DNA of 64,000 nucleotides, from NCBI GenBank assembly GCA_017417215.1, contig JAFPZP010000010.1, positions 10,155-74,154 of the forward strand, given 5' to 3'. The stretch is from Candidatus Rifleibacteriota bacterium (GTDB taxonomy: Bacteria > Muiribacteriota > Ozemobacteria > Ozemobacterales > Ozemobacteraceae). Below the pieces are notes generated by a model. That model worked only from the letters and a program-made list of their open reading frames with translations, did no database searches and had not been told where the DNA came from. A program made the translations under genes and the position numbers. The stretch's first letter is position 1; every line of letters starts with the position of its first letter. Shown here piece after piece: positions 24,067-62,186 of this stretch.

Positions 24067-24080
24067 CTATTTATCTCCAA

Positions 24081-25427: not shown

Positions 25428-25430
25428 TGA

Positions 25431-26816: not shown

Positions 26817-26819
26817 TGA

Positions 26820-30466: not shown

Positions 30467-30471
30467 TAAAA

Positions 30472-31563: not shown

Positions 31564-31636
31564 AATATAGAGTAATAGAGCTTGGGGGAAACCTAAAAAA
31601 GGCACTTGTACTGATTACAATCTAGTGTTATTATAA

Positions 31637-33800: not shown

Positions 33801-33869
33801 AAAATATATAGTAAATTAGCACACATATACATAAAGGTAAGTGTTTTATAAATTAGGAGGCAATGGATA

Positions 33870-35036
33870 GTGTTTGATAATGATTATATGGGTAGCGGAA
33901 GCGCTGAAATAAAGGTTATTGGCGTTGGCGGCGGCGGATCTAATGCCGTAAATAGAATGATCGAAGCCGATCTTTCCGGTGTAGAATTTATTGTAGCCAA
34001 TACGGATGCACAGGCTCTACAGAGTTCTAGTGCAAAATCAAAGATTCAATTGGGTGAAAAGATTACAAAAGGTCTTGGTGCTGGTGCAGATGCTGAAATA
34101 GGCAAAAAGGCAGCAGAAGAAGATCGTGATGAAATAGCCGAACAGTTAAAGGGTGCCGATATGGTATTCATTACTGCTGGTATGGGTGGTGGCACAGGTA
34201 CTGGTGCAGCACCTATTATTGCAGAAGTAGCCCGTGAACAGAATGCACTTACCATTGCCGTTGTAACAAAACCATTCAGCTTTGAAGGTAAGAAGAGAGC
34301 TAGTAGTGCAGAACTCGGTATCAAAAACCTCAGAGAACGCGTTGATGCTATTATCGTAGTTCCAAATGATAAGCTTATTGAAATAGCTAATGAAGAACTC
34401 ACAATGGAAGATGCTTATAGAGAAGCAGATGAAGTATTAAGACAGGGCGTTCAGGGTATCTCCGATCTTATTACAATTAATGGTGTTATCAACGTCGACT
34501 TCGCAGACGTTAAGACTATTATGAAGAGCTCTGGTTCTGCATTAATGGGTATTGGTATCGCTTCTGGTGAAAACCGTGCTGTTACTGCAGCTCAGCAGGC
34601 TATTGACAGCCCATTGTTGGAATCTTCAATTCAGGGTGCAAGAGGTGTTCTTGTAAGCATTTCTGCTTCACGCAGCCTTGGTATTATGGAAGTTAACAAA
34701 GCTATGAGCATTATCAGAGACGCTGCTGATGATGATGCTAACATTATTTTCGGTCACAATGTTAACGAAGAACTTGGTGAAAGCATTAAGATTACAGTAG
34801 TTGCTACTGGATTCGGTAAAGAAGAAAGAGCTTCTATCAGCAATAGCGGTGCAAGTCGCATATTGGATTCAGTTCGTTCAAATCGCCAAGCTGTTGAACC
34901 ACAGACAAGACCTGTTCAGCAGGTAGTTAACGCTGCACCTGTTGCAAATGACGACAGTGATATCCCAGCAATTCTTCGCAACAGCAACAGTGATGACCAC
35001 AATTTCCCAGCTTTCTTACGCAGAGGGAAAAAATAA
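33870..35036 (+). CDS. ftsZ: Cell-division GTPase FtsZ
   Basis: [14 protein letters not shown] plus the tubulin signature [10 protein letters not shown]. Confidence 0.95.
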
Positions 35037-37532: not shown

Positions 37533-39794
37533 ATGGAAGAAGAAACCTCAAAACTTGGCAAAATCATATATAATCTTATTGATGCTATGTTTTGGATAGC
37601 TGATGAAACAGCTAGATGGTGGGAAATAAGCAAAATAACCATTCAGGTAAAAACCTTCCGAAGACAGAAAGCTGTTTTAAACAAATTAATCAAGGAAAAC
37701 GAAAAGAAATCAATAGGAATTAGTGTTGCGCAAACAGCGGAACTGGCATCGTTAAATGAAAGTATTTCAAAACTTGCAGCCAAAGAAGATTTCTTAAAAA
37801 GTAAATGCTGGTCCTGGACACCATTTATAGACTTTACTCTTATATTTTTATTGTTTCTTTATGGGGTAATTTCAATAAATCCAATAAAAAAGATACAAGA
37901 CAACCCTCGAACCAATATAGGGGTATTTGGTGGTCAGATCAGCAGAGTTAGAGAATTACCTTTTCAGGGGCACAGCATTATTACTGATTCAATTTGGTTT
38001 GATAACAGACTTTATGTAGCGGGTAATAATGGTGTAACAATAATAAACACAGTTACAGGGCAAACCCAGAATATTAAAGACCTTCCCCAGAATTTTTTTG
38101 CCAAAGACCTTCAGATTATCAACAACCATTTATTGATAGCTGGGTATTCTGGAGTATTTGAATACGAAAATAATGTTTTAAAAACTTTATTTGATGAAAA
38201 TAAACTTCCTAATAAGCTTGTAAACGCATTTGCTGTTGTTAATGAACGAAAAAAACAATATTTAATAGGAACTTTAGGGGATGGGCTGTTTAGAACCAAT
38301 GGAGACAGTATTATTCCTATTTCTAATACCAGCAATTACATAATTAGAAGTTTTGGTCATCAAAGACAAGAACTTTGGATTCTACATGATGAAGGTATTT
38401 TAACTGGAAATTCTGATAAGCTAACCAGCCTTGATTTGCAGGTTCTAGCTGGCAAGAAGACCAGATGTATGGTAACTACCGACAAGAATGTCTTTATTGG
38501 AACAGATCAGGGTATTGTAGCTGGTTATAGAAGTTCCAAAAACTGGGTTTGGACAATGCTTTCTTCTATAAAGCCAGGATTTATCAATGATATTATAAAT
38601 GCTGGAGAAGTCCTTTTTATTGCATCTGATGAAGGGGTGTTCAGATACTATAAAGGGAAAATGGATAGATTATCTAGTATTCCAACTTACTCTCTTAGCT
38701 TATGCGATACTTTCTTGGCTGCTATAGGCAAATCTTCTGTTATTTTCTACTATTTTAATTTTTCTGGCAATATTGGCAATAGCTCAATATTTGGCGTAGT
38801 TCCTGAGTTGGGAACTTATACCCCGACTTTACCTATTACAACTTTGCCTATGGAAGTCAGACCGAATTATAAAAGAATGCCAGATTACGGTTTAATTGAG
38901 ACTGACGGAAAAGAACCTCTGACAGAAAGTGCTCTTTCAACAGAAAGCTATCCGCCAGATCAAAAGCCGATGGTTGAACTTCCTATTGAACTTCAAAGAC
39001 CGGTATTTTCAGATATTACCAAATTTAATAACAAATATTTACTGGCTACAACCAATAGAGGTATATGGTCCTTTGATGGTGAAGTCTGGAAACAGATTGA
39101 ACATAAGGGTATAGGGAATGCCAATAAACTTTGTTGTAATGAAAAACATTGTTACGCTTATAGCAGTGAATTTGGAATATACGAAATAGTAGACGGCAAT
39201 ACAAAACTAATTATAGAGCCTAAAGAAACTAAAAATCTGAAGTATCTCAGTATTTGTGATGAAGATACTCTTTTGCTTTTGTATTCTGATGGTAAGGTTA
39301 AAACTTTTAAGAATGGTGAATTCAATCTTTTCTTTACAATACCTAATGAATTTGTAAACAATTGTCATTCTATCTGGAAAGTTATGGATCAGTATGTAGC
39401 TGTTCTGAATCAGGGTATTATGACCCATGAATCCAATGGAAAATGGAATCTTATGTTTTTCCAAGGCAATATAGATTCTGCAAGAATAGCTGATGTAATC
39501 AATCTTAATCAAAAAGTTTTATATATAGCTTTAAATGATGGCAGAATCTTTGAATATTACAACAATAGACTGCCTCTTTCTGGAATCGTAGCTGATCATC
39601 CAAATTCTATTAACTATTCTGGAAATCTTTGGGTAGCAAGTATGGATTCTCTTTATTTAAAAGAGAAAAATACTTTTATAGCAATTCCATTTAAAAGCAG
39701 AGATAGAATTCTAGGGGCTTTCCCAGATAAAGAAAACAAAAATATTTATGTTTTCACAGCTTCTGGACTTAGAATTTTAAACAAACAAAAATAA
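37533..39794 (+). CDS. Membrane-anchored hypothetical protein with beta-propeller-like repeats
   Basis: One TM (FIDFTLIFLLFLYGVISI). Repeated segments rich in G/W/F, about 45 aa each (e.g. LYVAGNNGVTIIN, LLIAGYSGVFEY, VFIGTDQGIVAGY), resemble two-component-regulator propeller repeats. Confidence 0.4.
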   Translation: MEEETSKLGKIIYNLIDAMFWIADETARWWEISKITIQVKTFRRQKAVLNKLIKENEKKSIGISVAQTAELASLNESISKLAAKEDFLKSKCWSWTPFIDFTLIFLLFLYGVISINPIKKIQDNPRTNIGVFGGQISRVRELPFQGHSIITDSIWFDNRLYVAGNNGVTIINTVTGQTQNIKDLPQNFFAKDLQIINNHLLIAGYSGVFEYENNVLKTLFDENKLPNKLVNAFAVVNERKKQYLIGTLGDGLFRTNGDSIIPISNTSNYIIRSFGHQRQELWILHDEGILTGNSDKLTSLDLQVLAGKKTRCMVTTDKNVFIGTDQGIVAGYRSSKNWVWTMLSSIKPGFINDIINAGEVLFIASDEGVFRYYKGKMDRLSSIPTYSLSLCDTFLAAIGKSSVIFYYFNFSGNIGNSSIFGVVPELGTYTPTLPITTLPMEVRPNYKRMPDYGLIETDGKEPLTESALSTESYPPDQKPMVELPIELQRPVFSDITKFNNKYLLATTNRGIWSFDGEVWKQIEHKGIGNANKLCCNEKHCYAYSSEFGIYEIVDGNTKLIIEPKETKNLKYLSICDEDTLLLLYSDGKVKTFKNGEFNLFFTIPNEFVNNCHSIWKVMDQYVAVLNQGIMTHESNGKWNLMFFQGNIDSARIADVINLNQKVLYIALNDGRIFEYYNNRLPLSGIVADHPNSINYSGNLWVASMDSLYLKEKNTFIAIPFKSRDRILGAFPDKENKNIYVFTASGLRILNKQK

Positions 39795-41927: not shown

Positions 41928-42349
41928 AAATAGAAATTTTAATGCCTGGAAAAATACAGGATAAGCCTTATCAAAAGTTAGTTGATTTATATTTAGAAAG
42001 ATGTTCGAAACGTCTTCCTGTAGAAATCATTAATTGTAAAACAGAAGATGAGCTTGTTAAACGAATTAATGGCAGAGAATTCATAATTGCTCTTGATGAA
42101 CATGCCAAATGCCCAGATACTAACGGGTTTGTAAAGTGGCTGGATACAAAGTTAAAGTCAGGTTGTAATCGCCTTACAATTTGCTTAGGAGCTGCTGAAG
42201 GGCATGATCCAAGAGTAAAGGCTAGCGCAAACGAATTTATTTCTCTTTCACCCTTAACCTTAAACCATCAATTAGCACTTTTAGTGCTTGCAGAACAACT
42301 TTATAGGGCAATATCTATAATGTTCGGCGAACCTTACCATAAAGCATGA
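41924..42349 (+). CDS. rlmH: 23S rRNA (pseudouridine1915-N3)-methyltransferase RlmH (SPOUT family)
   Basis: IALDEHAK ... LTICLGAAEGH ... SLSPLTLNHQLALLVLAEQLYRAISIMFGEPYHK matches RlmH end to end. Confidence 0.8.
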   Translation: MKIEILMPGKIQDKPYQKLVDLYLERCSKRLPVEIINCKTEDELVKRINGREFIIALDEHAKCPDTNGFVKWLDTKLKSGCNRLTICLGAAEGHDPRVKASANEFISLSPLTLNHQLALLVLAEQLYRAISIMFGEPYHKA

Positions 42350-43197
42350 TTATAATTGAAGACGAACACTACAGTACAATCAGCAAGGCAATAAAAGAAT
42401 ATGCAGGTATAGTCCTTGAACGTATACCGCAGAATCGTGTCGAGAAAAAAATAATAGACCAGATGAAGCAGTTGAACTGCCATAACATAAATGACTTTGT
42501 AGAATTGCTTAAAAACTGCAACAATAATTCCAAGATAATGGATAGCTTTATTAGTGAAATAACCATTAGTGAAAGCTATATTTTCCGTAATCCAAAGCAA
42601 TTTGAGTATATGATAAATCAGTTCTTCCCAGAGTTCTTTAAGAAGAATAATTTTGAATTCCCCTTGAGAATCTGGAGTGCTGGATGTTCTCACGGAGAAG
42701 AACCTTATTCAATAGCGATGATAGCCAAAGATTTCAAACAGAAAAATCCTAAGGCAAAATTTGTTATCAACGCTGGCGATATAGACAAAACTTGTCTTTT
42801 GGAAGCACAAAAAGGTGTATACAAATCTAAATCGATGCACGGCAAAATAGAATTTTTCGAACACAAACTTGGCTTCCATATTGGCAAACATGACAAAAAT
42901 GGCAACTGTTTAATTTCCCAAGATCTTAAGGAAATGGTTGATTTTCATTGGCTTAATTTAAAAAATATTTCTAAACTAAAAATTATGCAGGGTTCTGATA
43001 TTATTTTTTGTAGAAACGTGTTAATATATTTTGATGAAGTCTTAAGGAAAAAAATATTAGAAACCTTCTATGAGTATTTGAATCCAAATGGCCTTCTATT
43101 TATAGGAGAAAGTGAATGTTTCTCATTCCCAGAAAAAACATTCGAACTGCTCGATACTAAAGGAAGTTACGCATACAGGAAACCAGGAAGTAAGTAG
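42346..43197 (+). CDS. cheR: Chemotaxis protein methyltransferase CheR
   Basis: RIWSAGCSHGEEPYSIAM and IIFCRNVLIYFD are SAM-MTase CheR signatures. Confidence 0.85.
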   Translation: MIIIEDEHYSTISKAIKEYAGIVLERIPQNRVEKKIIDQMKQLNCHNINDFVELLKNCNNNSKIMDSFISEITISESYIFRNPKQFEYMINQFFPEFFKKNNFEFPLRIWSAGCSHGEEPYSIAMIAKDFKQKNPKAKFVINAGDIDKTCLLEAQKGVYKSKSMHGKIEFFEHKLGFHIGKHDKNGNCLISQDLKEMVDFHWLNLKNISKLKIMQGSDIIFCRNVLIYFDEVLRKKILETFYEYLNPNGLLFIGESECFSFPEKTFELLDTKGSYAYRKPGSK

Positions 43198-43200
43198 GAT

Positions 43201-44259
43201 ATGGAAGAAGAGAAAAAAAAGATACGTGTTGTCATAGTAGATGATTCTGCTTTTATGAGAACCGCAATAGAAAGAATGCTTAAATCCGATCCTTCTATAG
43301 AAATAGTCGGTTCAGCGGCTAATGGTATGGAAGCAATAGATAGAACAGTCAGATTAAAACCTGACGTTGTTACTATGGACGTTGAAATGCCTATTATGGA
43401 TGGATTACAAGCATTAAAAGAAATAATGCGTATTAGACCTACTCCTGTAATAATGGTTAGCTCTTTAACTCATGAAGGAGCAAAAGTTACATTAGATGCT
43501 CTTGATCTCGGTGCAGTAGACTATGTTCCGAAGCCTGGTTCTACTTTTTCTACAAATATACTTCAGTTGAAGGGTGAATTGGTTTCAAAAATTCATAATG
43601 CTGCTGGAAGCCAGCCCCATTCTATAAAATTAGAATTTGCTCCAAAAACAACAGTTAAACGATTTCCTGTAAAAGATGATAGAATAACAAAAGTTATCTT
43701 TATTGGTGCTTCAACTGGTGGTCCGCCAGCTATACAGAAAATTTTATCTTCTCTAGATCCGAATTTACCAGCTCCAATTGTAATAGCTCAGCATATGCCA
43801 AAAGCTTTTACTGCTGCTTTTGCATCAAGATTAAACATGATTTGCAGGCTAAAAGTAAAAGAAGCTTGTGATGGCGAGCAGTTACAGAATTCTATTGCTT
43901 ATATTTGTCCAGGTGACCATCAAACAACAGTTAATAGAAGTCTTGAAGGCAAATGTACTTTTTCGGTTGTTTCAAACACTGTTCAAAAAGACCAGTTTGC
44001 TCCTTGTATTAATACTCTCTTCTTCTCGGCTGCCAAAGAGTTTGCACATAATGCTGTAGGAATTATTCTTACTGGTATGGGTGAAGATGGTGTTAGAGGG
44101 CTAAAGAATATTAAGCTTATGGGTGGTTTAACCATTGCCCAAGACCGTGTTTCATCAGTCGTTTATGGTATGCCAAGAGCTGCTTTAGACCAACAGGCCG
44201 CAGTAAGAATACTTAATCTTGACGATATAGCCAACGAAATAGAATTATCTTTAAAATAG
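43201..44259 (+). CDS. cheB: Chemotaxis response regulator protein-glutamate methylesterase CheB
   Basis: N-terminal REC domain (VVIVDDSAFMR...DVVTMDVEMPIMDG) plus the methylesterase domain (VIFIGASTGGPPA, ILTGMGEDG). Confidence 0.85.
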   Translation: MEEEKKKIRVVIVDDSAFMRTAIERMLKSDPSIEIVGSAANGMEAIDRTVRLKPDVVTMDVEMPIMDGLQALKEIMRIRPTPVIMVSSLTHEGAKVTLDALDLGAVDYVPKPGSTFSTNILQLKGELVSKIHNAAGSQPHSIKLEFAPKTTVKRFPVKDDRITKVIFIGASTGGPPAIQKILSSLDPNLPAPIVIAQHMPKAFTAAFASRLNMICRLKVKEACDGEQLQNSIAYICPGDHQTTVNRSLEGKCTFSVVSNTVQKDQFAPCINTLFFSAAKEFAHNAVGIILTGMGEDGVRGLKNIKLMGGLTIAQDRVSSVVYGMPRAALDQQAAVRILNLDDIANEIELSLK

Positions 44260-49190: not shown

Positions 49191-52100
49191 ATGAGTGTAA
49201 CTGTTGCAACTGAAACAGCTTCGCAGACAAATTCTTCTGCAGCTCCATCTACAACTGCCGCAGCGGCTCCTGCTGCAAACAATACTGCTAATTCTTTACC
49301 GCAGCAATACCAGACCAAAAAGGCTATGTGGGAACGAAAGCTTCTAGACTTAGGTTTGAGAAACCAGCTTATCAATATGCGCAAGTCTCGCACGCTGATT
49401 CCTCTTATAACTAATACAATTAACGAACTAGAAGACGCCTTGGCTGATGGTGAAGAATTCTTAATAACTGCAAAACCGGAAAAAACAGTATTTTCAGAAG
49501 AAGAATTCAAATTTGATGATTTATTAAAAACAGAAATCAAAGATGAAGATCTACAAAAGGAATTCGCAAAACACCATTTGTTTTCATCATTAACAGAAGG
49601 CGAATTAAAGAAAGCAATAAAAGAAGTCTACCGCTCAGCCAAAAGTTCTATCGAAGAAAACGGCGCCAATACTCTTTATTTGGCTCTTGGTCTTTTAAAA
49701 TGGTTTGAATCTAAGGGGAATAATCCGCCTGCCCGTTATGCACCGATTATTCTTTACCCAATAGATATAATCAGAAAATCAGCAGCTCAAGGCTACACAA
49801 TCAGTCTTAGAGACGATGACCCACAGCTCAACATAACAATGCTAGAAAAGCTGAAACAGGATTTCAGAATTGAAGTTGAAGGTTTGGATCCTCTTCCTCT
49901 AGATGAACACGGGCTAGACACACGTAAAATTTTTGAGACAATACGTGAATATGTTAAACCTCAGGAAAACTGGGAAGTTATAGAAGTTGCTGCAGTAGGT
50001 ATATTCTCCTTTACTCAGTTTGTAATGTGGAACGACCTGACCAACCGTTCTGACGACCTAATTAAGAATAAAATAGTCAAGAGTTTGTTGGAAGGCAAAC
50101 TCACCTGGGAAGCTGAAGGCATGGAAACTGGCGACCACGTCTGCGAAGATGATGTTTTTATGGCTATGCCAACAGACGCTTCTCAGCTTTTTGCTGTCAG
50201 AAGTGCTTGCGAAAACAAGTCTTTCGTTCTTCACGGTCCTCCAGGAACAGGTAAATCTCAGACTATTACTTCTTTGATTGCAAATGCCTTAGGGCAGAAT
50301 AAAACCGTTTTATTTGTAGCAGAAAAGATGGCTGCTCTAGAAGTAGTTCAAAAACGTCTTGCTTCTATTGGCTTAGACCCATTCTGCTTAGAACTTCATT
50401 CAAATAAATCTCGCAAAAAAGCTGTTTTGGAAAAATTACAGCAGACTACAGAATTCCGCAGACCTAAAGCAAGCGATGATTATAAGCAGAAAGCAGAAGA
50501 AATATCCAAACTTCGCAAAGAACTTAATGTTTATTCCGAAGACCTTCATAAGAAGCAAAGCTATGGTTTAAGCATATATGAGCTTATAAATGAATATGAA
50601 CTAAATTCAGACTTTCCCGATATTCCTGCTTTTTCTCAAGAAGCTTTAGGGAATGTTACTAAGGAACTACTCGACAAGCAGAATCAGATTATTGAATCCT
50701 TAATTACTTCTGCTCGTGCTGTTGGTCACCCTGCTGAACATGCTCTTTCAAGAGTAGGTTGTAAAGAATACAACCAGAGTCTTAAAGACGACCTTAATTC
50801 TAAGGCTACAAAATACTTGAATAATCTAGAAAAGCTAAAAGAATTAGCTGACGAATTCAAGAATAAAGCAGAACTAACAAATTTAGATGACGACATTGAA
50901 TGGACAAAACTTTTAACAACTGCTGAACAGGTTGCCAAATGGTCATACTTACCAAAAGCCTGGGCTGACCACAAAGGCATGAATATTTGCATGACTGAAA
51001 TAGCCGAAATGGCTGACCATTTCGCAAAGTCAAAAGAATTGCGCACTGAACTTGAAAAGAACTGGAAGCCAGAATTTTTCGATCAGAATGGTAGCGAACT
51101 TTCAGCTACTCATACTCAGAAGAGTAATTCCTGGTTTATTCCTAGATTCTTCGGGTTATGGAGCTTGAAAAGCAAAGTTTCATCTTTTGCAAAATCTTCT
51201 GTTAATGCAGATACTTTAGGCAAAGATCTTTCAGACCTTTCTTTATACCAGTCTGAAAAAGCTAAGGCTGATGAATTATTTAAAAAATACACTGCTGAAC
51301 TTGATTCTCTTTATGATGGTGAAAACACCGATTGGAACAAGGTTAAAACTTATGCTGTAGATGCAAAAGAAAGCTGCGCCAAACTTAACGAACTTTATAA
51401 TGATGAAGAACTTCGAATAAAGCTTTGTAGCAATAAAGAACTGACTCAAAAAGCTCAGGAAGTTCAAAAGGCAAACGAAACAAGACTTTCTTCCCAGAAA
51501 GAATTTGCTGAAGTTGCTATGCCAAAGCCTGTTAATCAGTTTAATACGCCTGTTCTGGAAGACATAGAAATGTGTAAGAATATCAACAAGCACGTTGAAG
51601 GTATAAAAGAATGGACTCTTTGGAATAAAACCTCAAGCGAAGCAGAAGAAGCCGGTTTGGCTGTCCTTGTCGAAGCCTATCAAAAGGGTATGGATCACGA
51701 CGATATAAAGGGAGCTTATTTAAAATCTATCAGTAAAGGCCTTGCTGCTCGTGCTATAGATGCTTCTAGCACTCTTAATAACTTCTCTGGGAAGGTATTT
51801 GACCAGAAAGTAGACAAATTCATAACTCTTGATAAACAGGTCAGCGCTCTTGGAAACCGTGAAATAGTCTATCGTTTGGCTGCAAAACTTCCTGACTTTA
51901 CTAGAGAGGCTGCTCAAAGCTCTGAACTAGGCATTTTACAAAGAGCTATCAAGAGCGGGGGTAGGGGAACCTCATTAAGAAAGCTTTTTGGGCAGATTCC
52001 TAATATTCTTCCAAGACTCTGTCCCTGTATGCTCATGAGCCCTATATCTGTTGCTCAATATATCGACCCCAATAAATCACCTTTCGATCTGGTAATCTTC

Positions 52101-53963
52101 GACGAAGCTTCACAGCTTACAACCAGCAAAGCAGTTGGTGTTTTGGCTCGTGGTCAGAATGCAGTAATCGTTGGTGACCCCAAGCAGATGCCGCCGACTT
52201 CATTCTTCTCTTCTGCTGCAGTTGATGAAGATAACCTTGATTTGGAAGATATGGAAAGTATTCTCGACGACTGCTTAGCCTTGAATATGCCTCAAACTCA
52301 TTTGTTATGGCACTACAGAAGTAAACACGAAAGCTTGATAGCTTTCAGTAACCATAACTTCTACGAAAGCAAGCTTTTCACTTTCCCATCAGTAGACGAC
52401 AGAGAATCTAAGGTTAATTTCGTTCCCGTAAAAGGCACTTTTGACCACGGTTCTGGCAAGCGCTACAACAAAGAGGAAGCCGAAGCTGTTGTTAAAGAAC
52501 TGATTCGCAGAAGCAAAGACCCCAAACTTTCTAAATACAGTGTTGGTGTTGTCACTTTCAACATTCCTCAGCAGAACCTCATCGACGACCTCTTTACTGA
52601 AGCCTGTAAGACAGACTTAGAACTTGAAAGCTGGGCTTATAAGAAAGAAGATCCGTTATTCATCAAGAATCTTGAAAATGTTCAAGGTGATGAACGCGAT
52701 GTAATCATATTCTCAGTCGGTTACGGACCAGACAAAGAAGGCAAAGTCTCTATGAACTTCGGTCCGTTGAACAAAGACGGCGGTTGGCGCAGACTTAACG
52801 TTGCTGTTTCCCGTTCTAAACGCGAAATGATGGTATTCAGCTCTATGCTGCCGGAACACATAGACACCAACAAGACCAAAGCAGAAGGCGTTATCGCTCT
52901 TAGAAACTTCCTTGATTTTGCTAGGAATCCGAAAGGCTATTCTTTCTCTGCTGAAAAGAATGCTGCTCAAAACGGCATTATAAAGAGTCTTAGCAAAATT
53001 TTGAAAGAACAGGGTTATTCTGTAGATACCAACATTGGTAATTCTGAATTCAAGATTGATTTAGGCGTAATCGACCCGAGAAATGAAAACAGATATCTTC
53101 TCGGTATTTTGCTCGACGGACCTGTTTATGCAGAATGCAAGACCACCAGAGACCGTGAACTTTCACAGGCAAGTGTTCTTAGAGGCTTAGGCTGGAACAT
53201 CATTAGAATGTGGAGTATGGATTGGTGGGAAAACAAGGATATTGAAGTTGACAAGCTGTTAGATAAACTAGACAAGCTTAAAAACGACAAATCCATAGAA
53301 CCAGAAAAGAAAGAAGAACCAAAAGCAGAGCTGAAACCTGTTGAATACGAAGAACCAGGCACTGCTCCTGCCTCTGACTCTGGAATATTTGCCAAACCTT
53401 ATACTGCAACTCAATTACCTCAAACTTCATTGTCATCAGATGATTTTATGGCTAGAAAGAACGCAGCAGAGCTCAAAAAGCGTGCTATGAAAGTAATTGA
53501 AACAGAAGCTCCTATCACAGAAGGTTTGCTTACCAAACGTCTGATTCAAAGCTATGGAATAACAAGAGTTGGAACACGTGTTCAGGCATATTTAGACGAA
53601 TTCTATGCAAATCTTTCTTTAAAAACCACAACTCAGTCTGACGGTCAAAAGATTTACTGGAATCCAAAGCAGAATCCTGATGATTACAGCGATTGCAGAG
53701 CAGGCAAAACAGATGCTGACAAACGTGATTCTAAGGATATTCCAATAATAGAAGCCTCTAATGCTGTTTACAAAATCGTTTCAGATCAGATTGCACTCTC
53801 TTCTGAAGATTTAGCCAAGGAAGCGGCAAAACAGCTTGGCTTCTCACGTCTCGGCACAAATCTTACAACTCTTATGGATGCCGCCGTAGAAATGAACAAA
53901 GCCGCCGGCTACCTGACCGTCGCTGAAAACGGCAACATCACCCTGAACAAAACAGAAAACTAA
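49191..53963 (+). CDS. Large DUF4011 - SF1 (Upf1/DNA2-like, COG1112) helicase - Vsr/PD-(D/E)xK-like endonuclease - DUF3320 protein; a candidate defence helicase
   Basis: The N-terminus WERKLLDLGLRNQLINMRKS is DUF4011-like. Walker A is LHGPPGTGKSQTITSLI. VIVGDPKQMPPTSFF, VTFNIPQQ and VQGDERDVIIFSVGY are SF1 motifs. C-terminal GNSEFKIDLGVIDPRNENRYLLGILLDGPVYAECKTTRDRELSQASVLRGLGWNIIRMWSMDWW is a Vsr-like REase segment, followed by a DUF3320-like tail. Confidence 0.75.
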   Translation: MSVTVATETASQTNSSAAPSTTAAAAPAANNTANSLPQQYQTKKAMWERKLLDLGLRNQLINMRKSRTLIPLITNTINELEDALADGEEFLITAKPEKTVFSEEEFKFDDLLKTEIKDEDLQKEFAKHHLFSSLTEGELKKAIKEVYRSAKSSIEENGANTLYLALGLLKWFESKGNNPPARYAPIILYPIDIIRKSAAQGYTISLRDDDPQLNITMLEKLKQDFRIEVEGLDPLPLDEHGLDTRKIFETIREYVKPQENWEVIEVAAVGIFSFTQFVMWNDLTNRSDDLIKNKIVKSLLEGKLTWEAEGMETGDHVCEDDVFMAMPTDASQLFAVRSACENKSFVLHGPPGTGKSQTITSLIANALGQNKTVLFVAEKMAALEVVQKRLASIGLDPFCLELHSNKSRKKAVLEKLQQTTEFRRPKASDDYKQKAEEISKLRKELNVYSEDLHKKQSYGLSIYELINEYELNSDFPDIPAFSQEALGNVTKELLDKQNQIIESLITSARAVGHPAEHALSRVGCKEYNQSLKDDLNSKATKYLNNLEKLKELADEFKNKAELTNLDDDIEWTKLLTTAEQVAKWSYLPKAWADHKGMNICMTEIAEMADHFAKSKELRTELEKNWKPEFFDQNGSELSATHTQKSNSWFIPRFFGLWSLKSKVSSFAKSSVNADTLGKDLSDLSLYQSEKAKADELFKKYTAELDSLYDGENTDWNKVKTYAVDAKESCAKLNELYNDEELRIKLCSNKELTQKAQEVQKANETRLSSQKEFAEVAMPKPVNQFNTPVLEDIEMCKNINKHVEGIKEWTLWNKTSSEAEEAGLAVLVEAYQKGMDHDDIKGAYLKSISKGLAARAIDASSTLNNFSGKVFDQKVDKFITLDKQVSALGNREIVYRLAAKLPDFTREAAQSSELGILQRAIKSGGRGTSLRKLFGQIPNILPRLCPCMLMSPISVAQYIDPNKSPFDLVIFDEASQLTTSKAVGVLARGQNAVIVGDPKQMPPTSFFSSAAVDEDNLDLEDMESILDDCLALNMPQTHLLWHYRSKHESLIAFSNHNFYESKLFTFPSVDDRESKVNFVPVKGTFDHGSGKRYNKEEAEAVVKELIRRSKDPKLSKYSVGVVTFNIPQQNLIDDLFTEACKTDLELESWAYKKEDPLFIKNLENVQGDERDVIIFSVGYGPDKEGKVSMNFGPLNKDGGWRRLNVAVSRSKREMMVFSSMLPEHIDTNKTKAEGVIALRNFLDFARNPKGYSFSAEKNAAQNGIIKSLSKILKEQGYSVDTNIGNSEFKIDLGVIDPRNENRYLLGILLDGPVYAECKTTRDRELSQASVLRGLGWNIIRMWSMDWWENKDIEVDKLLDKLDKLKNDKSIEPEKKEEPKAELKPVEYEEPGTAPASDSGIFAKPYTATQLPQTSLSSDDFMARKNAAELKKRAMKVIETEAPITEGLLTKRLIQSYGITRVGTRVQAYLDEFYANLSLKTTTQSDGQKIYWNPKQNPDDYSDCRAGKTDADKRDSKDIPIIEASNAVYKIVSDQIALSSEDLAKEAAKQLGFSRLGTNLTTLMDAAVEMNKAAGYLTVAENGNITLNKTEN

Positions 53964-56428: not shown

Positions 56429-58633
56429 ATGAGAAAACTACGAAAAAAACATACTGTTTTACTATTTATATTATTAATCCTTTCCTGCTTGTTACTGATT
56501 GCAGTCGATGAAGCCTTTGCTCGTGCCGGCGGTGGTGGTGGCGGAGGCGGCGGAGGTGGCGGCGGAGGCGGCGGTCACGGTGGCCGCGGCGGTAAAGGCG
56601 AAACACTAATATTGGATCTTTTTGTTAGCAGTTGTAAAACACGTGGTATTGCAACAACTCTGTTGCTTTTTTCCCCTTTTATATTGTTTCATTTTACAAG
56701 TTGTTTTGCAGCTTCATTTTATTATAAAGAAAAGGCTTTATCCAGAGTTTTGTTCTTTCTAGGAGCCTTCTTTTTTGGTGGCATTTTTTGTTTTTCGTGT
56801 TTTGGAACTATTTTTTTAGTTTTACCTATTGAATGTGTGACATTAAAAACCATTATAGAGTCAAGAATCAAATATGGTCGTTTTATTACTTGTAACGAAG
56901 AACAATCTAAAAAATTCTCCACAGATAATACACCAAAAGAAAAATTAGCTTTAATGAAAATAAAAAAGAATAATCCTTCTTTTTCATTAACAGATTTTAA
57001 AACAAGAATAAAAAAAGCTTTTAAAATTATTCAGGATTCTTGGATGGATCAGGATTTATCAAATGCGGAAATGTTCTTAGCTGATGGAACTTATGAACAG
57101 TTTCAAATACAAATAAACGGAATGATTAAGGACAATACCGTAGATATAATGAAAGAGCTGGAAATCCAAAATGTTTTTGCAATAAAAGCAGAAAACTCTT
57201 TTGATTATGATTCTATATATGTAGCAATTCAAGCAAAAGCCATTAATTATTTAATGAATAAAAGAACAAAAGCTATCATAAAAGGAGATTCTACAGAACC
57301 TGAATTATTTGCAGAAGTTTGGTGCTTCATGCGAAGAAAAGGGGCTAAAGAATTAAACAGCAAAGGCTTAATAGAAGGATACTGTCCTAATTGCGGAACA
57401 CATATAGAAGGAGCAAGATTAATACAGTGCCCTTCTTGCAATGCTTTGCTAAAATCTGGTCAGCATGACTGGATTCTTGCCGGCATTTATCAGTCTTCTG
57501 AATGGAGAGACACTCATAATTCACATATTCCTGGATTGAAAAATTTATATAAATATGACCCTTCATTTAACATACAGAATATAGAAGATAAACTCTCAGC
57601 CATTTTCTGGCGTATGATTGAAGCTGTTAGAAACCAGAGTGCCGATTCTATTCTTAAAATATCATCAGATAAATTTGCCCAGGATTTTATAAAATCATCT
57701 TTCAAACACAAAGAAATATCAAGATATAATAAAGCTGGAACAGATTCTATTGAAATAATAGGTATTTCAGAAGAAGACGGCAAACATGTACTCTTAGGAC
57801 AAGTTATATGGAATAGTTGTATAACACGAAATGGCAAAGAAGAAACTATTCATCAAAAATCTGTCTTTATTCTTAAAAGAGATATTAATACCAAAACAGA
57901 TACAAGAAAATGCTTCTGTAGTTCACATTGTATAAATTGCGGAGCAGCAGAAACTTTTAACAGCAGTAATTACTGCGAATACTGCAATACTGCAGTTAAT
58001 GACGATAAAAAAGATTGGATTCTTACAGATATTTGTAATATATCTGATCTTTTAATAGGAAAATACCTAAATCATGCTAATATTTATGATAAAAAGGAAG
58101 TTGTTGTTAATCAGGAAAAGACTGTAGCCAAAGCTAATCAAATTATTGCAGAGCCTACAGATTACAATGATTCTACTGAAGAAGAATATGAAGACGATTC
58201 TCTGGATATCAATTTCTGGAGCCTATTAGGCAAATACTCAGTAAAAGATCTGCTTAGAATGTGCATAGCTGTAATGCTTGCAGATGGAGTAATAGACAAA
58301 AACGAATTACAAATAATCAGAAAAATCTGTGAAATAGGCTATATCCCCGAAGAAGTTCTTCAAATGAATATAAGAGAAATGCAAAACGCAGATAATCCTA
58401 TTGAACATGTTTTAGAAACATCAGCAATAGGATTAGATAAAGATTTGCTCAAATTATTAATTAAAATAGCCGTCTCAGATGGAGATGTAGCAAAATCTGA
58501 AGTTGATATAATCTTTAAGATGTCAGAAAAGATGCATGTTTCAAGAAATGAAACCATTGATTCCATAAATAATATTTATGAGAAAAGATGGAAAAAGAAA
58601 CTAGATCAGTCTATTTTTTCCCAAAGGTTTTGA
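56429..58633 (+). CDS. Membrane protein: signal/TM, (Gly)n tract, two TM helices, two Tim44-like domains each carrying an inserted CxxC...CxxC zinc ribbon, and a C-terminal TerB-like domain
   Basis: ARAGGGGGGGGGGGGGGGGHGGRGG. Repeat 1: FAEVWCFMRR...CPNCG...CPSCN...HDWILAGI. Repeat 2: VFILKRD...CINCG...CEYCN...KDWILTDI. The C-terminus LLRMCIAVMLADGVIDKNELQIIRKICEIG ... LLIKIAVSDGDVAKSEVDIIFKMSEKM is TerB-like. Confidence 0.5.
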   Translation: MRKLRKKHTVLLFILLILSCLLLIAVDEAFARAGGGGGGGGGGGGGGGGHGGRGGKGETLILDLFVSSCKTRGIATTLLLFSPFILFHFTSCFAASFYYKEKALSRVLFFLGAFFFGGIFCFSCFGTIFLVLPIECVTLKTIIESRIKYGRFITCNEEQSKKFSTDNTPKEKLALMKIKKNNPSFSLTDFKTRIKKAFKIIQDSWMDQDLSNAEMFLADGTYEQFQIQINGMIKDNTVDIMKELEIQNVFAIKAENSFDYDSIYVAIQAKAINYLMNKRTKAIIKGDSTEPELFAEVWCFMRRKGAKELNSKGLIEGYCPNCGTHIEGARLIQCPSCNALLKSGQHDWILAGIYQSSEWRDTHNSHIPGLKNLYKYDPSFNIQNIEDKLSAIFWRMIEAVRNQSADSILKISSDKFAQDFIKSSFKHKEISRYNKAGTDSIEIIGISEEDGKHVLLGQVIWNSCITRNGKEETIHQKSVFILKRDINTKTDTRKCFCSSHCINCGAAETFNSSNYCEYCNTAVNDDKKDWILTDICNISDLLIGKYLNHANIYDKKEVVVNQEKTVAKANQIIAEPTDYNDSTEEEYEDDSLDINFWSLLGKYSVKDLLRMCIAVMLADGVIDKNELQIIRKICEIGYIPEEVLQMNIREMQNADNPIEHVLETSAIGLDKDLLKLLIKIAVSDGDVAKSEVDIIFKMSEKMHVSRNETIDSINNIYEKRWKKKLDQSIFSQRF

Positions 58634-60269
58634 GAATTTCAGTTCTTAGTGTACCAGCACCTGAATTATGAATTAGGAATAAATGCTGGTTCTTGTTAAT
58701 GCAGGCTCTTACCTGGAAAAGATACAGGTGGCCTGCGTAGCTGGTCATAACAACTGCAACATCGCATCTTCCAACTATTTCGTTGGTTCTTGCCTGGCTT
58801 ATGGTGTGGAAACCTTCATACCATTCATAATCAGAATCTTCAACACCGGCTTCTTTTAATGTTGGCCAGTATTGTTCACGGCTACCACCGCCAAAAATAA
58901 CTATTCTTTTGCCCTTCATCAATCCTTCAACAGAATTAGCATTTTCATCGGGAAGAGCATTTAATTGTCTGAGTTTTGCTGTTAATTCCTGATTTTCATT
59001 ATCAAGTTTTCTGAATTCACTGCGCAGCAAAGCATCTTCTTCAAGAGTTTCTTTGAGTTCTTTGTTGGCGGCATTAACTTTAGCTTCTGCAGCAGAAAGC
59101 TGTTTCCTGACTTCTGCTGGGTCGAGTTTTGATAACTTAACTTTTATTTCTTCGTTTTCGATTTTTACTGCTCTGGCTTCGGCTTTAGCTTCATCTCTTT
59201 CTATGATAAGCTTGTTAATTTGTTCTTTAAGCTTATCTGCATCAGAGCGCATTTCACCTATCTTTTCCTGAAGTTCTTCCTTGGTTAATTCAAAATCTTT
59301 TAAGGAAATATTAGGTCTTGTTTGGTTGAAATGCTTTAAAACGAAGTGGTGATGCGTATAAACTTCGAGAATATCTTTTAAATAATCTTCGTAGGCTTCC
59401 TGTTTATCTTCGTTTGGTGGAAATTCTGTTTGAACGTCTTTTATTAAAAGCTTCAAAAGTTTTTTCCCGTCTCTGTAAGCTTTGTCGACATCATCATAAA
59501 AAGTAGGTCTTACAAGATTAAGATTTCTTGTTTTATTGAATATTTCATCAAGATACTTGAAATTATCTGCATCTAAAAGCTTCCAGAATCTGATAACATC
59601 AGCAGGTTTTATTTCGTATCGAAGTTCACTTAAAACCTTGTCTAATGCTTCTTTCCTTTGGTCTTCGCTGTTAGGTATATCTTCGTTTTCATTCTGCTTA
59701 CAGATAGTATCTATCTGTTTTACAAGCTTTTTAAAAGCTGGAAACTCATCGCTATCAAGGAATAAAGTAGCCAAAAAACTTTTTCTTTTTAGGAAATGTC
59801 TAGAGAAAACTCTTTTTTCTCCGCCGATTTCAACATCATATTTTGAACTAATTTTGCCACCGACATTATATTTTTTCTTTTTCTTGGCTGCTTCTTCTAA
59901 GGCTTCAGCTTCACGTGCCTTGCGGATTTTTGCCAGTTTTTCTTCTATCATTTCACTGACAAGACGGGCTTGAACAGGTCCGCTCAGCATAATATCCAAT
60001 AAATCGCCGATAAATAAAGCGAAAGCTCGACCATTTTTGTCGTAAGCTTCGGCAAATTTTTTATGTATATTCCAATAACGGTTTTCTTCTTCTTCTATTT
60101 TGCTTTCTGGTTTTGCTTTTGTTTCTTTCTTTTTCATCAAGTCACCAGCAAGTTGTGTGACCATATTTTTCCCTTTTGATGATGGGGAAAAACCAGCTAG
60201 TTTTTCTAATTCATCTAAGTTTTTCTTTTGACTTCTGGAAAGATTAAGACCGTCTAATGGGTTTAACAT
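58611..60269 (-). CDS. Coiled-coil protein with a C-terminal DUF2325-like Rossmann-like domain
   Basis: A long Glu/Lys heptad region (residues ~330-440) is followed by a C-terminal domain with GKRIVIFGGG and CDVAVVMTSYAGH motifs (quoted in full in the findings). The DUF2325 call is from memory of that family's hvivGG / aDlVivftdyvsH pattern. Confidence 0.4.
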   Translation of the reverse strand: MLNPLDGLNLSRSQKKNLDELEKLAGFSPSSKGKNMVTQLAGDLMKKKETKAKPESKIEEEENRYWNIHKKFAEAYDKNGRAFALFIGDLLDIMLSGPVQARLVSEMIEEKLAKIRKAREAEALEEAAKKKKKYNVGGKISSKYDVEIGGEKRVFSRHFLKRKSFLATLFLDSDEFPAFKKLVKQIDTICKQNENEDIPNSEDQRKEALDKVLSELRYEIKPADVIRFWKLLDADNFKYLDEIFNKTRNLNLVRPTFYDDVDKAYRDGKKLLKLLIKDVQTEFPPNEDKQEAYEDYLKDILEVYTHHHFVLKHFNQTRPNISLKDFELTKEELQEKIGEMRSDADKLKEQINKLIIERDEAKAEARAVKIENEEIKVKLSKLDPAEVRKQLSAAEAKVNAANKELKETLEEDALLRSEFRKLDNENQELTAKLRQLNALPDENANSVEGLMKGKRIVIFGGGSREQYWPTLKEAGVEDSDYEWYEGFHTISQARTNEIVGRCDVAVVMTSYAGHLYLFQVRACINKNQHLFLIHNSGAGTLRTEILKTFGKK

Positions 60270-60305: not shown

Positions 60306-61748
60306 TTAAGCTATTTGATTGCCGCCGCGCTTGCGAGCAAGTTTTAATGCTTTTTCAGCCATTTTTAATAAATCGCCTGGTTTAGTTGTAGCTCCTGAGC
60401 TACTTGCCAAACCAAAGCTTCCAGTTAGCATAATGGTTTGATTGCTAGCTCTTACCTTAGTCTGACTAAGTGATTGTTTTAATTTATTGGCTGCAACTAA
60501 GGCTCCGGTATATGGTGTTTCTGGAAGAAGCATAGCAAAACTGTCTGCGCCGAATCTGGCAACCAAGTCATGTATTCTTGTTGCAGAGCGGAACATTTTT
60601 CCAACTTCTTTCAAAAGTTTGTTACCAGTGTTTTCGCCGTAGGTTTCGTTAACTGTTGAAAAATGGTCTAGATCCATGATGATTAATGAAATATCTTTTC
60701 TGTAGCGCTGTGCTCTGCAAAATTCTTCTGTAAGTCTTTGCATAAAAAGATTTTCATTGGCTATGCCTGTAATTGGGTCTGTTGTTGCAGAATAATACAT
60801 TTTTGTTCTATTTATGGCTACAGAAGCTTGAGCAGCAAATATCTTCATCATCTGATCTGTTCTTGAAGTCATAATATTGCCAGAATGCTTGGTATCAACA
60901 TAAAGTACACCAATATTGCTGGACATTTCTTTTAATGGAACTATGGCAACAGATAGTATTCCAACGTCTTCTGGGCTTTTAAACTTGGGATTTGGATTCC
61001 TGAAGTTATGGGAAGGCCCTATCAAAGATTCACCTGTGTCGAAACATTTGCTTACCAAAAATGAAGTAGCTTGCATATCTTCGGTAACTTCACTGTTATC
61101 GAAATTAATCATAGAAACTGTTTCTAATCTGCCAAGTTCTTCGTTGAAAAGCATCATTAATGCTCTTTCACCGCCGGTTACATTTATTGCCATTTCCAAA
61201 GTGAAGTCAAGAAGTCTTGGAAAGCTTTCAATTGAATTTAATGCATAACTGACTTCTAAAACTGCTGAAAGCTCTTTGATACGGGTAACCATTTCGCCTT
61301 CTGTAGCAGATAATGCAGGGTAATACTGACGCGGAATCTTTGAACGTATTGTTGCAAAACTTTTACGAACAAAGTTTTCGTTACTATTTAAGAAAAATGG
61401 GAAAAATCTGTCGCTGTCAGGGCTGACAGAAGCTTCGTTACCTTCAAGTTGCAGAGAGACAAAGACATCGTCAGACATTTCTATAAAACAACCAGGATTA
61501 ATTGTAGCAATAAAACCTGGCTGGATTTTTTCGCCATTCACGATTGTACCATATGGGCTTTGTAAATCCTGTAATGTCAGGTAACCGTCTGAATTATAGC
61601 GAAGCTGAATCTGTCGACGAGAAATGCCCATCTTATTTAACTGAATATCGCAGTCGTTACCGCTGCCTATTACAACACCGTCACCATGCAAACTGGGGCT
61701 TCCTTCGTAAAGAATCTGCCCATTTTTATCTGTAATTAAAACTTTCAT
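60306..61748 (-). CDS. FHA domain - GAF domain - degenerate GGDEF domain protein (A-site GADSF, I-site RIHD intact); a likely c-di-GMP-binding, non-catalytic signalling protein
   Basis: The N-terminus VVIGSGNDCDIQLNKMGISRRQIQLRYNSDGYLTLQDLQSPYGTIVNGEKI is FHA. The middle region, with TGGERALMML, is GAF-like. The C-terminal TTDPITGIANENLF...IIMDLDHFSTVNETYG...RIHDLVARFGADSFAMLLP is GGDEF with GGDEF replaced by GADSF. Confidence 0.7.
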   Translation of the reverse strand: MKVLITDKNGQILYEGSPSLHGDGVVIGSGNDCDIQLNKMGISRRQIQLRYNSDGYLTLQDLQSPYGTIVNGEKIQPGFIATINPGCFIEMSDDVFVSLQLEGNEASVSPDSDRFFPFFLNSNENFVRKSFATIRSKIPRQYYPALSATEGEMVTRIKELSAVLEVSYALNSIESFPRLLDFTLEMAINVTGGERALMMLFNEELGRLETVSMINFDNSEVTEDMQATSFLVSKCFDTGESLIGPSHNFRNPNPKFKSPEDVGILSVAIVPLKEMSSNIGVLYVDTKHSGNIMTSRTDQMMKIFAAQASVAINRTKMYYSATTDPITGIANENLFMQRLTEEFCRAQRYRKDISLIIMDLDHFSTVNETYGENTGNKLLKEVGKMFRSATRIHDLVARFGADSFAMLLPETPYTGALVAANKLKQSLSQTKVRASNQTIMLTGSFGLASSSGATTKPGDLLKMAEKALKLARKRGGNQIA

Positions 61749-62125
61749 TTCTTAACCTTATATCCACATTTGCAAACTTTTTTTGCCCCCAATACACGAC
61801 CACATTCAGGACAATATTTGCTTACGTGGCTGGCAATCTTTTTCTCTGCGGCTTTTAGCTTTCGCTTTTCTTCTAGCTTTTTGGCCATTTCAAGGAAAGC
61901 CAGTCCTTCTTCTTCACTAACAGCTTTATTTTTAGCAGCACCACTAATCATTTCTTCATATTTTTCAGAATAATCAGGGTTTTCTTCAAGGTAGGCTTTA
62001 AAAGCTTTTTGTGGGTCTTTGTGCTTTTTGTACAAATGTTCATAAGAATAAATAGGTTCTTCTTCGAGCTTTTCTTCGCATATTGCAATGAATTTTTCTT
62101 CCCAAATATCATAAGGGTCTTGCAT
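61745..62125 (-). CDS. Small acidic protein with a C-terminal CPxCG...CKCG zinc ribbon; first gene of the FHA-GGDEF operon
   Basis: 126 aa with a Glu/Lys-rich body. The C-terminus is YCPECGRVLGAKKVCKCGYKV. Its stop overlaps the downstream gene start by 4 nt. Confidence 0.4.
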   Translation of the reverse strand: MQDPYDIWEEKFIAICEEKLEEEPIYSYEHLYKKHKDPQKAFKAYLEENPDYSEKYEEMISGAAKNKAVSEEEGLAFLEMAKKLEEKRKLKAAEKKIASHVSKYCPECGRVLGAKKVCKCGYKVKK

Positions 62126-62157
62126 TTATTGTCACCTGCCTTTGCTACTAATGAGGA

Positions 62158-62186
62158 TTATACCTTAATAATTATTAATTATCAAT
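62158..62186 (-). promoter_or_regulatory. Candidate sigma70-type promoter for the minus-strand zinc-ribbon/FHA-GGDEF/DUF2325 operon
   Basis: On the minus strand: TTGATA, a 17-nt spacer, then TATAAT. The RBS and ATG at 62125 lie downstream. Confidence 0.4.

Follow-up and report, generated by a model that had tools for sequence, protein, structure and literature searches.

A degenerate FHA-GAF-GGDEF protein of the Rifleibacteriota as a candidate I-site receptor for c-di-GMP, encoded with a DUF2325 partner

Receptors for cyclic di-GMP (c-di-GMP) that are built on degenerate GGDEF domains and hold the ligand at the inhibitory site (I-site) have been described, including SgmT and PopA (PMC3509222) and PopA, PelD and CdgA (PMC3974145). 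The inactivity of SgmT was argued from the combined loss of the acidic signature residue and of the K442 and R446 equivalents, and the protein was then shown to bind c-di-GMP via its RxxD motif (PMC3509222; PleD numbering is used below as quoted there). Substitutions of the signature Asp and Glu inactivated WspR (cited in PMC3509222), and in the active exceptions AGDEF (VCA0965) and SGDEF (ECA3270) the first position alone is changed (PMC3974145). Phosphothreonine-competent FHA domains are defined by GR, SxxH and NG motifs, and MxiG-N, which is without the full set, does not bind phosphothreonine (PMC3162421). In the FHA-GGDEF protein DgcB, a phosphorylated tail is held by R61, T96 and N97, and R249 is the helix contact to c-di-GMP (PMC6733907). 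Here, a gene encoding an FHA-GAF-GGDEF protein of a Candidatus Rifleibacteriota bacterium was analysed in a stretch of 64,000 nucleotides (contig JAFPZP010000010.1, positions 10,155 to 74,154 of the forward strand; 'the window' is this whole stretch). The open reading frame (ORF) lies on the minus strand (60306..61748), starts with ATG and encodes 480 amino acids (aa). It belongs to one of two paralogous types, named type A (kinase gene upstream) and type B (DUF2325 gene downstream; the window gene). The probability that the window protein is a pseudo-enzyme acting as a c-di-GMP receptor via its I-site is put at roughly 0.55, from sequence comparison.

The fusion to FHA and GAF domains, proposed in the original prediction from the letters alone, was borne out by Pfam matches. 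The FHA-fold domain (residues 1-100, 61449..61748, minus strand) was matched by PF00498 at residues 25-90 of the protein (E 4e-13). The GAF domain (residues 175-312, 60813..61226, minus strand) was matched by PF01590 at 24.4 bits, above the cut-off of 22.4 and with stronger scores in orthologs, and GAF_2 fell just short (28.1 bits, cut-off 28.6). The GGDEF domain (residues 321-480, 60309..60788, minus strand) was matched by PF00990 at residues 321-478 over the whole profile (1-161 of 161, E 6e-35). TIGR00254 scored 127.7 bits (cut-off 37.4), compared with 171.7 for the canonical paralog, and two further models were passed: a GdpP-like GGDEF model (31.8 bits, cut-off 30) and the Pfam model Yop-YscD_cpl (35.6 bits, cut-off 33.2).

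In the AlphaFold model of the protein (mean predicted local distance difference test score 84.9), the FHA part is a beta-sandwich (residues 2-100), followed by a disordered linker (103-116) and long helices (118-172) before the GAF domain, which is joined to the GGDEF domain by a long helix (295-322). The modelled GGDEF domain was superposed on 3ign, 6tts and 6zxb with a root-mean-square deviation of 1.2-1.3 Å over ~160 residues and, in this predicted structure, the GGDEF fold is preserved in the degenerate protein. The nearest multi-domain structures found with Foldseek were the GAF-GGDEF protein Dcsbis (4zmu) and the FHA-GGDEF protein DgcB of Bdellovibrio. The nearest relative locus was in the rumen metagenome-assembled genome (MAG) RUG334 (92% identity), and all 67 full-length homologs with a source name came from Riflebacteria, Rifleibacteriota or Ozemobacteraceae. 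The product of the neighbouring gene showed 100% identity to P0121, from a 'Candidatus Riflebacteria bacterium' MAG.

The GG(D/E)EF signature of cyclases is replaced by GADSF (residues 400-404, 60537..60551, minus strand). In HMMER alignments to solved cyclases, GADSF was placed exactly below GGDEF of 6d9m and GGEEF of 6zxm and 5euh, and paralogs reading RIHD-LPARY-GGEEF match the window protein column for column, so that the register of the motif is independently confirmed. No GG(D/E)EF was found elsewhere within the GGDEF domain; by this absence, and by the ungapped alignments that fix the register, a true motif at another place in the domain was ruled out. The substitutions named in the original prediction are therefore real: the second Gly (PleD G369) is Ala, and the catalytic, metal-binding Glu at the fourth position (E371) is Ser.

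The losses extend beyond the signature, and 7 of 13 active-site (A-site) positions are non-canonical in the window protein. In DLDHFSTVNETYGENTGN (60621..60674, minus strand), aligned to the canonical DxDxFKxxNDxxGHxxGD, the equivalents of the transition-state Lys K332, of H340 and of the guanine-binding D344 are S364, E372 and N376, respectively. In AEKALKLARKRGGN (60318..60359, minus strand), aligned to the canonical A(D/E)xALYxAKxxGRN, the phosphate-binding K442 and R446 are replaced by R472 and G476, and the resulting 'GGN' was invariant in type B (91/91 sequences). Signatures of the relatives read GADSF, GADTF, GPDSF, GSDSF, GAETF, SHNRF and others: in the 74 type B sequences whose signature is degenerate, Ala (47), Pro (12), Ser (6) and others occupy position 401, and Ser (42), Thr (24), Glu (4) and others position 403. 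Loss of catalysis is strongly supported by these alignments, which indicate that the window protein probably no longer makes c-di-GMP.

RIHD (residues 391-394, 60567..60578, minus strand), which the original prediction had taken for a preserved RxxD, does lie under the RxxD primary I-site motif of the solved cyclases, ungapped and with the canonical five-residue spacer to GADSF, and R391 and D394 are conserved in the family. Two further positions are putative parts of the site. R348 (60705..60707, minus strand) is an invariant Arg in the helix before DxD and is aligned with an Arg in 6d9m, 6zxm and 5euh; from the register, we take it to be the equivalent of WspR R198 in the secondary I-site. 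K422 (60483..60485, minus strand) is an invariant Lys 28 residues past the RxxD Asp, at the position of PleD R390 and DgcB R249, which is occupied by Arg in 6d9m and 6zxm and by His in c-di-GMP-bound GcbC (5euh).

Position statistics were taken from 108 unique family sequences, including 91 of type B and 16 of type A. R348, R391, D394 and K422 were invariant across both types, one gapped sequence excepted, and the invariance of A-site and FHA-pocket positions was confined to type A. In type B, 28 of the 158 columns of the GGDEF domain were invariant, all four I-site positions among them; the chance of this is ~8e-4 if positions are assumed to be independent. Close type B pairs had non-synonymous divergence (dN) of at most 0.13 with saturated synonymous divergence (dS; Nei-Gojobori method). 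The ratio omega was ~0.02-0.06 in each of the FHA, GAF and GGDEF domains, with FHA estimates of ~0.003-0.07 and GGDEF estimates of ~0.02-0.05; synonymous sites were saturated in all available pairs, so these values are rough and 'far below 1' alone is safe. Purifying selection on all three domains indicates that the degenerate domains are functional and not decaying.

The FHA domain was aligned to M. tuberculosis FhaA (PDB 3po8/2lc1). IGRG, SRRH and STNGT of FhaA correspond on the minus strand of the window to IGSG (canonical GR, 61659-61670), SRRQ (canonical SxxH, 61611-61622) and SPYGT (canonical S-T-N-G, 61545-61559), and the phosphate-contacting Arg and Thr are gone, together with the conserved His and Asn. 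At the Arg position of GR, all 16 type A sequences have Arg, whereas 90 of the 91 type B sequences have Ser, Thr or Asn. In SxxH, the Ser is kept in the window protein and is Ala in most of type B, and the His is changed to Gln; in the S-T-N-G loop, Thr is changed to Pro in 90 of 91 type B sequences and Asn to Tyr or Phe, the Asn being missing from type A too. All the DUF2325-coupled relatives are without the FHA pocket residues, except a deep member (L086) that keeps the Arg, and all the kinase-coupled paralogs keep GR, SxxH and S-T.

No kinase was found in the window, either with Pfam (~48 ORFs of at least 110 aa) or by tblastn with three Riflebacteria kinases, as the original prediction had already remarked. 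Since the phosphothreonine pocket is degenerate, the missing kinase is explained and is no longer puzzling. As far as its residues can be read from alignment, the pocket (GR to GS, SxxH to SxxQ, S-T to S-P) contradicts the accompanying claim that the FHA domain implies a Ser/Thr-phosphorylation input. Of that earlier interpretation, the degenerate signature with an intact RxxD, a pattern like that of SgmT and PopA (PMC3509222), was upheld, and the phosphorylation input was not.

Gene contexts were compared and one genome per GTDB species was scanned. A gene for a Hanks-type kinase (Pkinase) lies 0-20 bp upstream of the type A gene in 12 of 12 loci, none of which has a DUF2325 gene downstream. 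At the type B loci, a coiled-coil/DUF2325 gene (540-560 aa) follows directly downstream (40/40) and kinase genes are absent (0/40); HAMP-SpoIIE (PP2C) phosphatase genes are found upstream in ~22 of the 40, and a gene for an extracytoplasmic function (ECF) sigma factor after the DUF2325 gene in ~28. The type A motifs are GR, SR[EQ]H and ST[FY]GT in the FHA domain and, in 10 of 10 sequences with a complete domain, GGEEF, GHxxGD and ALYxAKxxGRN in the GGDEF domain. In type B, GR is replaced by G[STN], S-T by [ST]-P, GRN by GGN and GH by GE. Motif state and gene context thus form a perfect dichotomy (12 kinase-coupled versus 40 DUF2325-coupled loci).

Both types were found within one assembly in seven cases and in an eighth, GCA_015232575.1, in which a type A gene is accompanied by the divergent type B member L086 in an intermediate state (GR kept, SGEEF, GGN). 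From their presence in the same assemblies, the two types are paralogs and their split is older than the deep branches of the phylum; a stepwise series, with the kinase-coupled proteins as its deep orthologs, was ruled out on the same ground. Identity between the types is 37-40%. In a neighbour-joining (NJ) tree without bootstrap support, type B formed one clade, within which lay a 70-member sub-clade that holds the window protein and has a degenerate signature throughout, and a 20-member sister that reads GGDEF.

Several loci of the family stand apart. A third, highly diverged FHA-GAF-GGDEF-like copy (L060, CAYYIY010000081.1, 3192-4661; motifs LGND, AQRH, NSETF and RIHD) has neither a kinase nor a DUF2325 gene close by, pairs with L086 at the base of type B in the NJ tree, and shares its genome with a type A copy (L056). 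In Riflebacteria GWC2_50_8 (L041, MFYY01000205.1, 4001-5399), the type B gene was recovered as two tblastn pieces and its ORF ends at 352 aa, from either a frameshift (a pseudogene) or an assembly error. The assemblies of four loci (L014, L024, L031 and L058) are labelled as other taxa ('Candidatus Avigastranaerophilus', 'Erysipelotrichia', 'Candidatus Methylomirabilis') and are probably mislabelled or chimeric MAGs. At most type B loci, a gene for a protein of 360-490 aa with no Pfam match overlaps the ECF sigma gene by 4 bp on its downstream side (for example L004 11147-12810, L002 14187-16237 and L086 7722-9667), and the product is plausibly the cognate anti-sigma factor.

In the window, the partner gene (552 aa, 58611..60269, minus strand) lies directly 3' of the FHA-GAF-GGDEF gene: it starts 36 nt past the end of that gene, and its ATG is preceded by an AGGAAG site. 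The protein is composed of a conserved helical N-domain (about residues 57-317) that holds an invariant YTHHHFV motif (59340-59360, minus strand), of a coiled-coil hairpin (residues 323-435, 58965-59303, minus strand) and of a small, four-stranded alpha/beta DUF2325 domain at the C-terminus (residues 454-549, 58623-58910, minus strand), all three as seen in the predicted model. PF10087 scored 27.6 bits on the window partner, under the cut-off of 33.6, yet the match spans profile positions 2-91 of 94, and most partner orthologs carry a precomputed PF10087 match. The partner is conserved along its entire length (mean column identity 62%, 34 orthologs), and all the named ones among 124 homologs found are from Riflebacteria. 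No match to it was obtained in NCBIfam or PADLOC, and a reading of the operon as a defence system was dropped for want of PADLOC support.

On the other side, the stop codon of a small gene (126 aa, 61745..62125, minus strand) overlaps the start of the FHA-GAF-GGDEF gene (ATGA), so that the two are translationally coupled. Its product is acidic and Lys-rich, with a zinc-ribbon-like CPECG...CKCG motif at the C-terminus, and matched no Pfam, NCBIfam or PADLOC family. This gene is confined to the rumen clade, where its position is shared by L010-L013, whereas in L014 it is found 2.5 kb upstream. The window unit consists of the zinc-ribbon gene, the FHA-GAF-GGDEF gene and the DUF2325 gene, with operon-like junctions. 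A promoter-like site upstream of the three (TTGATA-17 nt-TATAAT, 62157..62185, minus strand) matches the consensus at 11 of 12 positions, and the regional total of such sites is not above the shuffled expectation.

In relatives, genes for an ECF sigma factor, an anti-sigma-like protein and a thioredoxin lie between the DUF2325 gene and glgB, whereas in the window their place is taken by a convergent Tim44/TerB gene. Nothing was found by tblastn in the 64 kb with three SpoIIE phosphatases, four ECF sigma factors and thioredoxin probes, and the Pfam scan of the ORFs showed no phosphatase either. An ECF sigma factor cannot be obligatory for the module, since the locus in the window and in the rumen clade has none. 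Since the flanks differ even inside the rumen clade, the invariant core is the gene pair. The Tim44/TerB gene itself (56429-58633, plus strand) encodes 734 aa with a signal-like N-terminus, a Tim44-like domain, CxxC pairs, two C-terminal TerB domains and a run of 16 consecutive Gly (GGGGGGGGGGGGGGGGHGGRGG), and its 3' end overlaps that of the DUF2325 gene by 23 bp.

The following origin would account for the paralogs. The ancestor was presumably a cyclase under Ser/Thr-kinase control whose gene was duplicated, and the type A copy would have kept its Hanks kinase upstream. The type B copy would have lost the phosphothreonine pocket of its FHA domain and the GTP phosphate-binding Arg (GRN to GGN) and gained the coiled-coil/DUF2325 gene as a linked partner, and the GG(D/E)EF signature may have been lost later, in the sub-clade that holds the window protein; selection would have kept the I-site (R391xxD394, R348 and K422) throughout. 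In the proposed mechanism, c-di-GMP made by other cyclases would bind the I-site of a GAF-mediated dimer and shift its conformation or oligomeric state, and this shift would alter the interaction with the co-encoded DUF2325 coiled-coil protein, the FHA fold possibly serving as a phospho-independent protein-contact module. The ECF sigma and HAMP-SpoIIE (PP2C) neighbours in most relatives suggest a transcriptional or partner-switching output, although both are absent from the locus in the rumen clade to which the window protein belongs. A broader proposal can be offered as a speculation that we consider improbable as a whole: the degenerate FHA-GAF-GGDEF protein and the coiled-coil/DUF2325 protein may form an undescribed, Riflebacteria-wide c-di-GMP effector module that controls an ECF sigma factor or SpoIIE partner-switching, born by duplication of a kinase-gated cyclase in which the phosphorylation input was swapped for a second messenger.

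Several observations weigh against the receptor reading or its extension to a module. The Arg that contacts c-di-GMP in PleD, DgcB and SgmT is Lys in the window protein, and the same Lys is found in the presumably active type A paralog. WspR also carries a Lys at this position, so that the Lys is not disqualifying for a putative secondary site. R348, R391 and D394 are common in ordinary GGDEF domains, so that their invariance could be partly structural. The A-site retains D359, D361, N367 (the equivalent of the guanine-binding PleD N335) and D402, and nucleotides may therefore still be accommodated there. The window contained no further c-di-GMP gene (GGDEF, EAL, HD-GYP or PilZ), and the ECF sigma and SpoIIE neighbours that are usual in relatives are missing at its locus. 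The function of the partner gained nothing from structures: no PDB match was found by sequence, a 34-ortholog profile against PDB gave coiled-coil noise, and Foldseek against PDB gave nothing at E <=0.001, with generic alpha/beta three-layer folds alone (an aspartate transcarbamoylase subdomain, SulA, a receiver). DUF2325 is uncharacterised in the literature, where the C. jejuni DUF2325 protein Cj1384c is reported as induced by oxidative stress. Finally, the tree behind the order of losses carries no bootstrap values.

Among the rivals to an I-site receptor, the one that survives best, though we think it unlikely, is a scaffold or adaptor that works independently of c-di-GMP. In such a protein, the dead GGDEF and FHA domains would be dimerisation and contact surfaces for the DUF2325 protein, the GAF domain would be the real sensor, and RxxD would be kept for structural or protein-protein reasons. 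The equal constraint on all three domains and the invariably co-encoded partner fit this picture, as do the FHA-FHA and FHA-GGDEF contacts in the solved DgcB structure; degenerate GGDEF domains that are independent of c-di-GMP also exist (CdpA and YybT/GdpP; PMC3974145), and the GdpP-like model was passed by the window protein. It leaves unexplained, however, why four I-site positions are invariant while neighbouring functional positions drift (107 sequences), and in characterised cases the same conservation pattern predicts c-di-GMP binding.

Less probable again is a sensor based on the remnant A-site, which would bind GTP, another nucleotide or c-di-GMP without turnover and exert allosteric control. 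The GEDEF domain of Caulobacter PdeA reportedly senses GTP in this way. Among type B sequences with a degenerate signature, the residues that bind metal and base, D359 (69/74), D361 (74/74), N367 (68/74) and D/E402, are retained, and the D344 equivalent is consistently Asn or Asp, which could retune base specificity; yet Gly stands at the phosphate-binding R446 equivalent throughout type B (91/91), and variation at the equivalents of K332 and K442 and of the hairpin residues G369 and E371 speaks against a conserved pocket. Ligand binding at degenerate A-sites has been noted (PMC3974145).

We give still less credit to a regulatory subunit, in which the type B protein would form heterodimers with the type A cyclase and damp or localise its activity. 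GGDEF enzymes work as dimers, the two paralogs share an architecture with long dimerisation helices, and they occur together in at least eight assemblies. Most type B genomes, including all five species representatives of the rumen clade, showed no type A locus in the genome scan, however, although the MAGs are incomplete; the paralogs are only 37-40% identical, and the conserved linkage is to DUF2325 and not to type A. A still-active diguanylate cyclase with an unusual signature is highly improbable, despite the active AGDEF (VCA0965) and SGDEF (ECA3270) enzymes (PMC3974145) and the name 'diguanylate cyclase' given to relatives in public annotations, because those exceptions alter the first position alone and the window protein has seven losses together, because the free variation of the motif in close relatives cannot be reconciled with a conserved catalytic hairpin, and because substitutions of the signature Asp and Glu inactivate WspR (cited in PMC3509222).

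Some consequences follow for annotation and evolution. At least the members of the degenerate 70-member clade are almost certainly not diguanylate cyclases, and their annotation as such inflates the counts of c-di-GMP 'writers' in Riflebacteria genomes. The family offers an unusually clean natural experiment in pseudo-enzyme evolution, in which one paralog has seen its FHA input pocket and GGDEF output site decay together, has kept its allosteric product-binding site frozen and has exchanged a kinase for a DUF2325 protein as gene partner. It also provides a hypothesis for DUF2325, a widespread domain, in a candidate phylum without a cultured model; if the module proposal were true, it would be the first functional context for this domain and a case of a writer enzyme turned into a reader of the same signal. 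Nothing is overturned, as degenerate GGDEF receptors are an established concept.

Elsewhere in the window, a 1590-aa protein (49191-53963, plus strand) combines DUF4011, a superfamily 1 helicase (AAA_11/AAA_12), REase_MTES_1575 and DUF3320. Along its full length it matches the PADLOC candidate defence system PDC-S37 (1198 bits), and its match to Hhe (522 bits) is partial; the G+C content around the gene is 0.39-0.43, compared with a window mean of ~0.35, which suggests horizontal acquisition. The housekeeping context (27924-35036, 42346-44259 and 11190-11720, plus strand; 21115-27404, minus strand) includes the dcw cluster (murD, ftsW, murG, ftsQ, ftsA and ftsZ), cheR, cheB, cheW and a TetR-regulated RND efflux system. 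Two more proteins, of 753 aa (37533-39794, plus strand) and 734 aa (16585-18789, plus strand), had no Pfam match at E <=0.001.

The closest functional parallels of the window protein are the I-site receptors M. xanthus SgmT, C. crescentus PopA, P. aeruginosa PelD and B. bacteriovorus CdgA. Like them, it has a GGDEF fold with a dead A-site and an RxxD five residues upstream of the signature that is conserved across orthologs; like SgmT, it has lost the K442 and R446 equivalents and combines its GGDEF domain with a GAF domain (PMC3509222; PMC3974145). It differs in its N-terminal module, an FHA fold that is itself degenerate, and in being without a kinase, receiver or transmembrane output domain, so that its output would presumably pass through the separately encoded coiled-coil/DUF2325 protein. 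Where SgmT (R794) and PleD (R390) have the secondary-site Arg, the window protein has Lys, and its binding of c-di-GMP is a prediction. The features that distinguish it from these receptors are the co-degenerate FHA domain, the probable origin from a duplicated kinase-gated cyclase and the invariant DUF2325 partner.

Three other groups resemble it in part. DgcB of Bdellovibrio bacteriovorus (6hbz/6hc0; Foldseek E 1e-16) also has an N-terminal FHA domain and a GGDEF domain with RxxD, but it is an active GGEEF cyclase whose FHA cleft (R61, T96, N97, K72 and R76) binds the phosphorylated tail (PMC6733907), whereas in the window protein Ser, Pro and Tyr take the places of R61, T96 and N97, a GAF domain separates FHA from GGDEF and the A-site is dead. 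Dcsbis (PA2771, 4zmu; Foldseek E 4e-17 over 329 columns) shares the succession of GAF domain, long helix and GGDEF domain, but is an active enzyme without an FHA domain. FHA folds without the full GR/SxxH/NG set are also found in Shigella MxiG-N, Yersinia YscD and Chlamydia CT664 (3gqs), of which the last ranked with the best PDB matches by sequence and has 'GS' as well; these, however, form the cytoplasmic domains of ring proteins in type III secretion, and the window locus has no secretion context.

The nearest comparison remains the type A paralog (for example P0064/L001 and P0066/L006), which has the same layout, length, RIHD motif and phylum as the window protein, and often the same genome; in type A, GR, SxxH and S-T of the FHA domain and all A-site residues are kept and a Pkinase gene lies upstream, whereas type B has the DUF2325 gene downstream. 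Further full-length FHA-GAF-GGDEF proteins (query ~21-479, 25-33% identity) were found in an exhaustive HMMER search among 1.84 billion representatives, the canonical cyclases being represented by P0245-P0375. Eighteen representatives were fetched: 15 read GGEEF and one GGKEF, these 16 with GHxxGD and, by regular expression or by eye, GR in the FHA domain, and the two degenerate ones of the 18, P0241 (IGSS/DSDMY/GGN) and P0242 (GSDEF), look like further type B lineages from their motifs. With relatives so widespread, the architecture is not new; what is new is the doubly degenerate, DUF2325-linked paralog.

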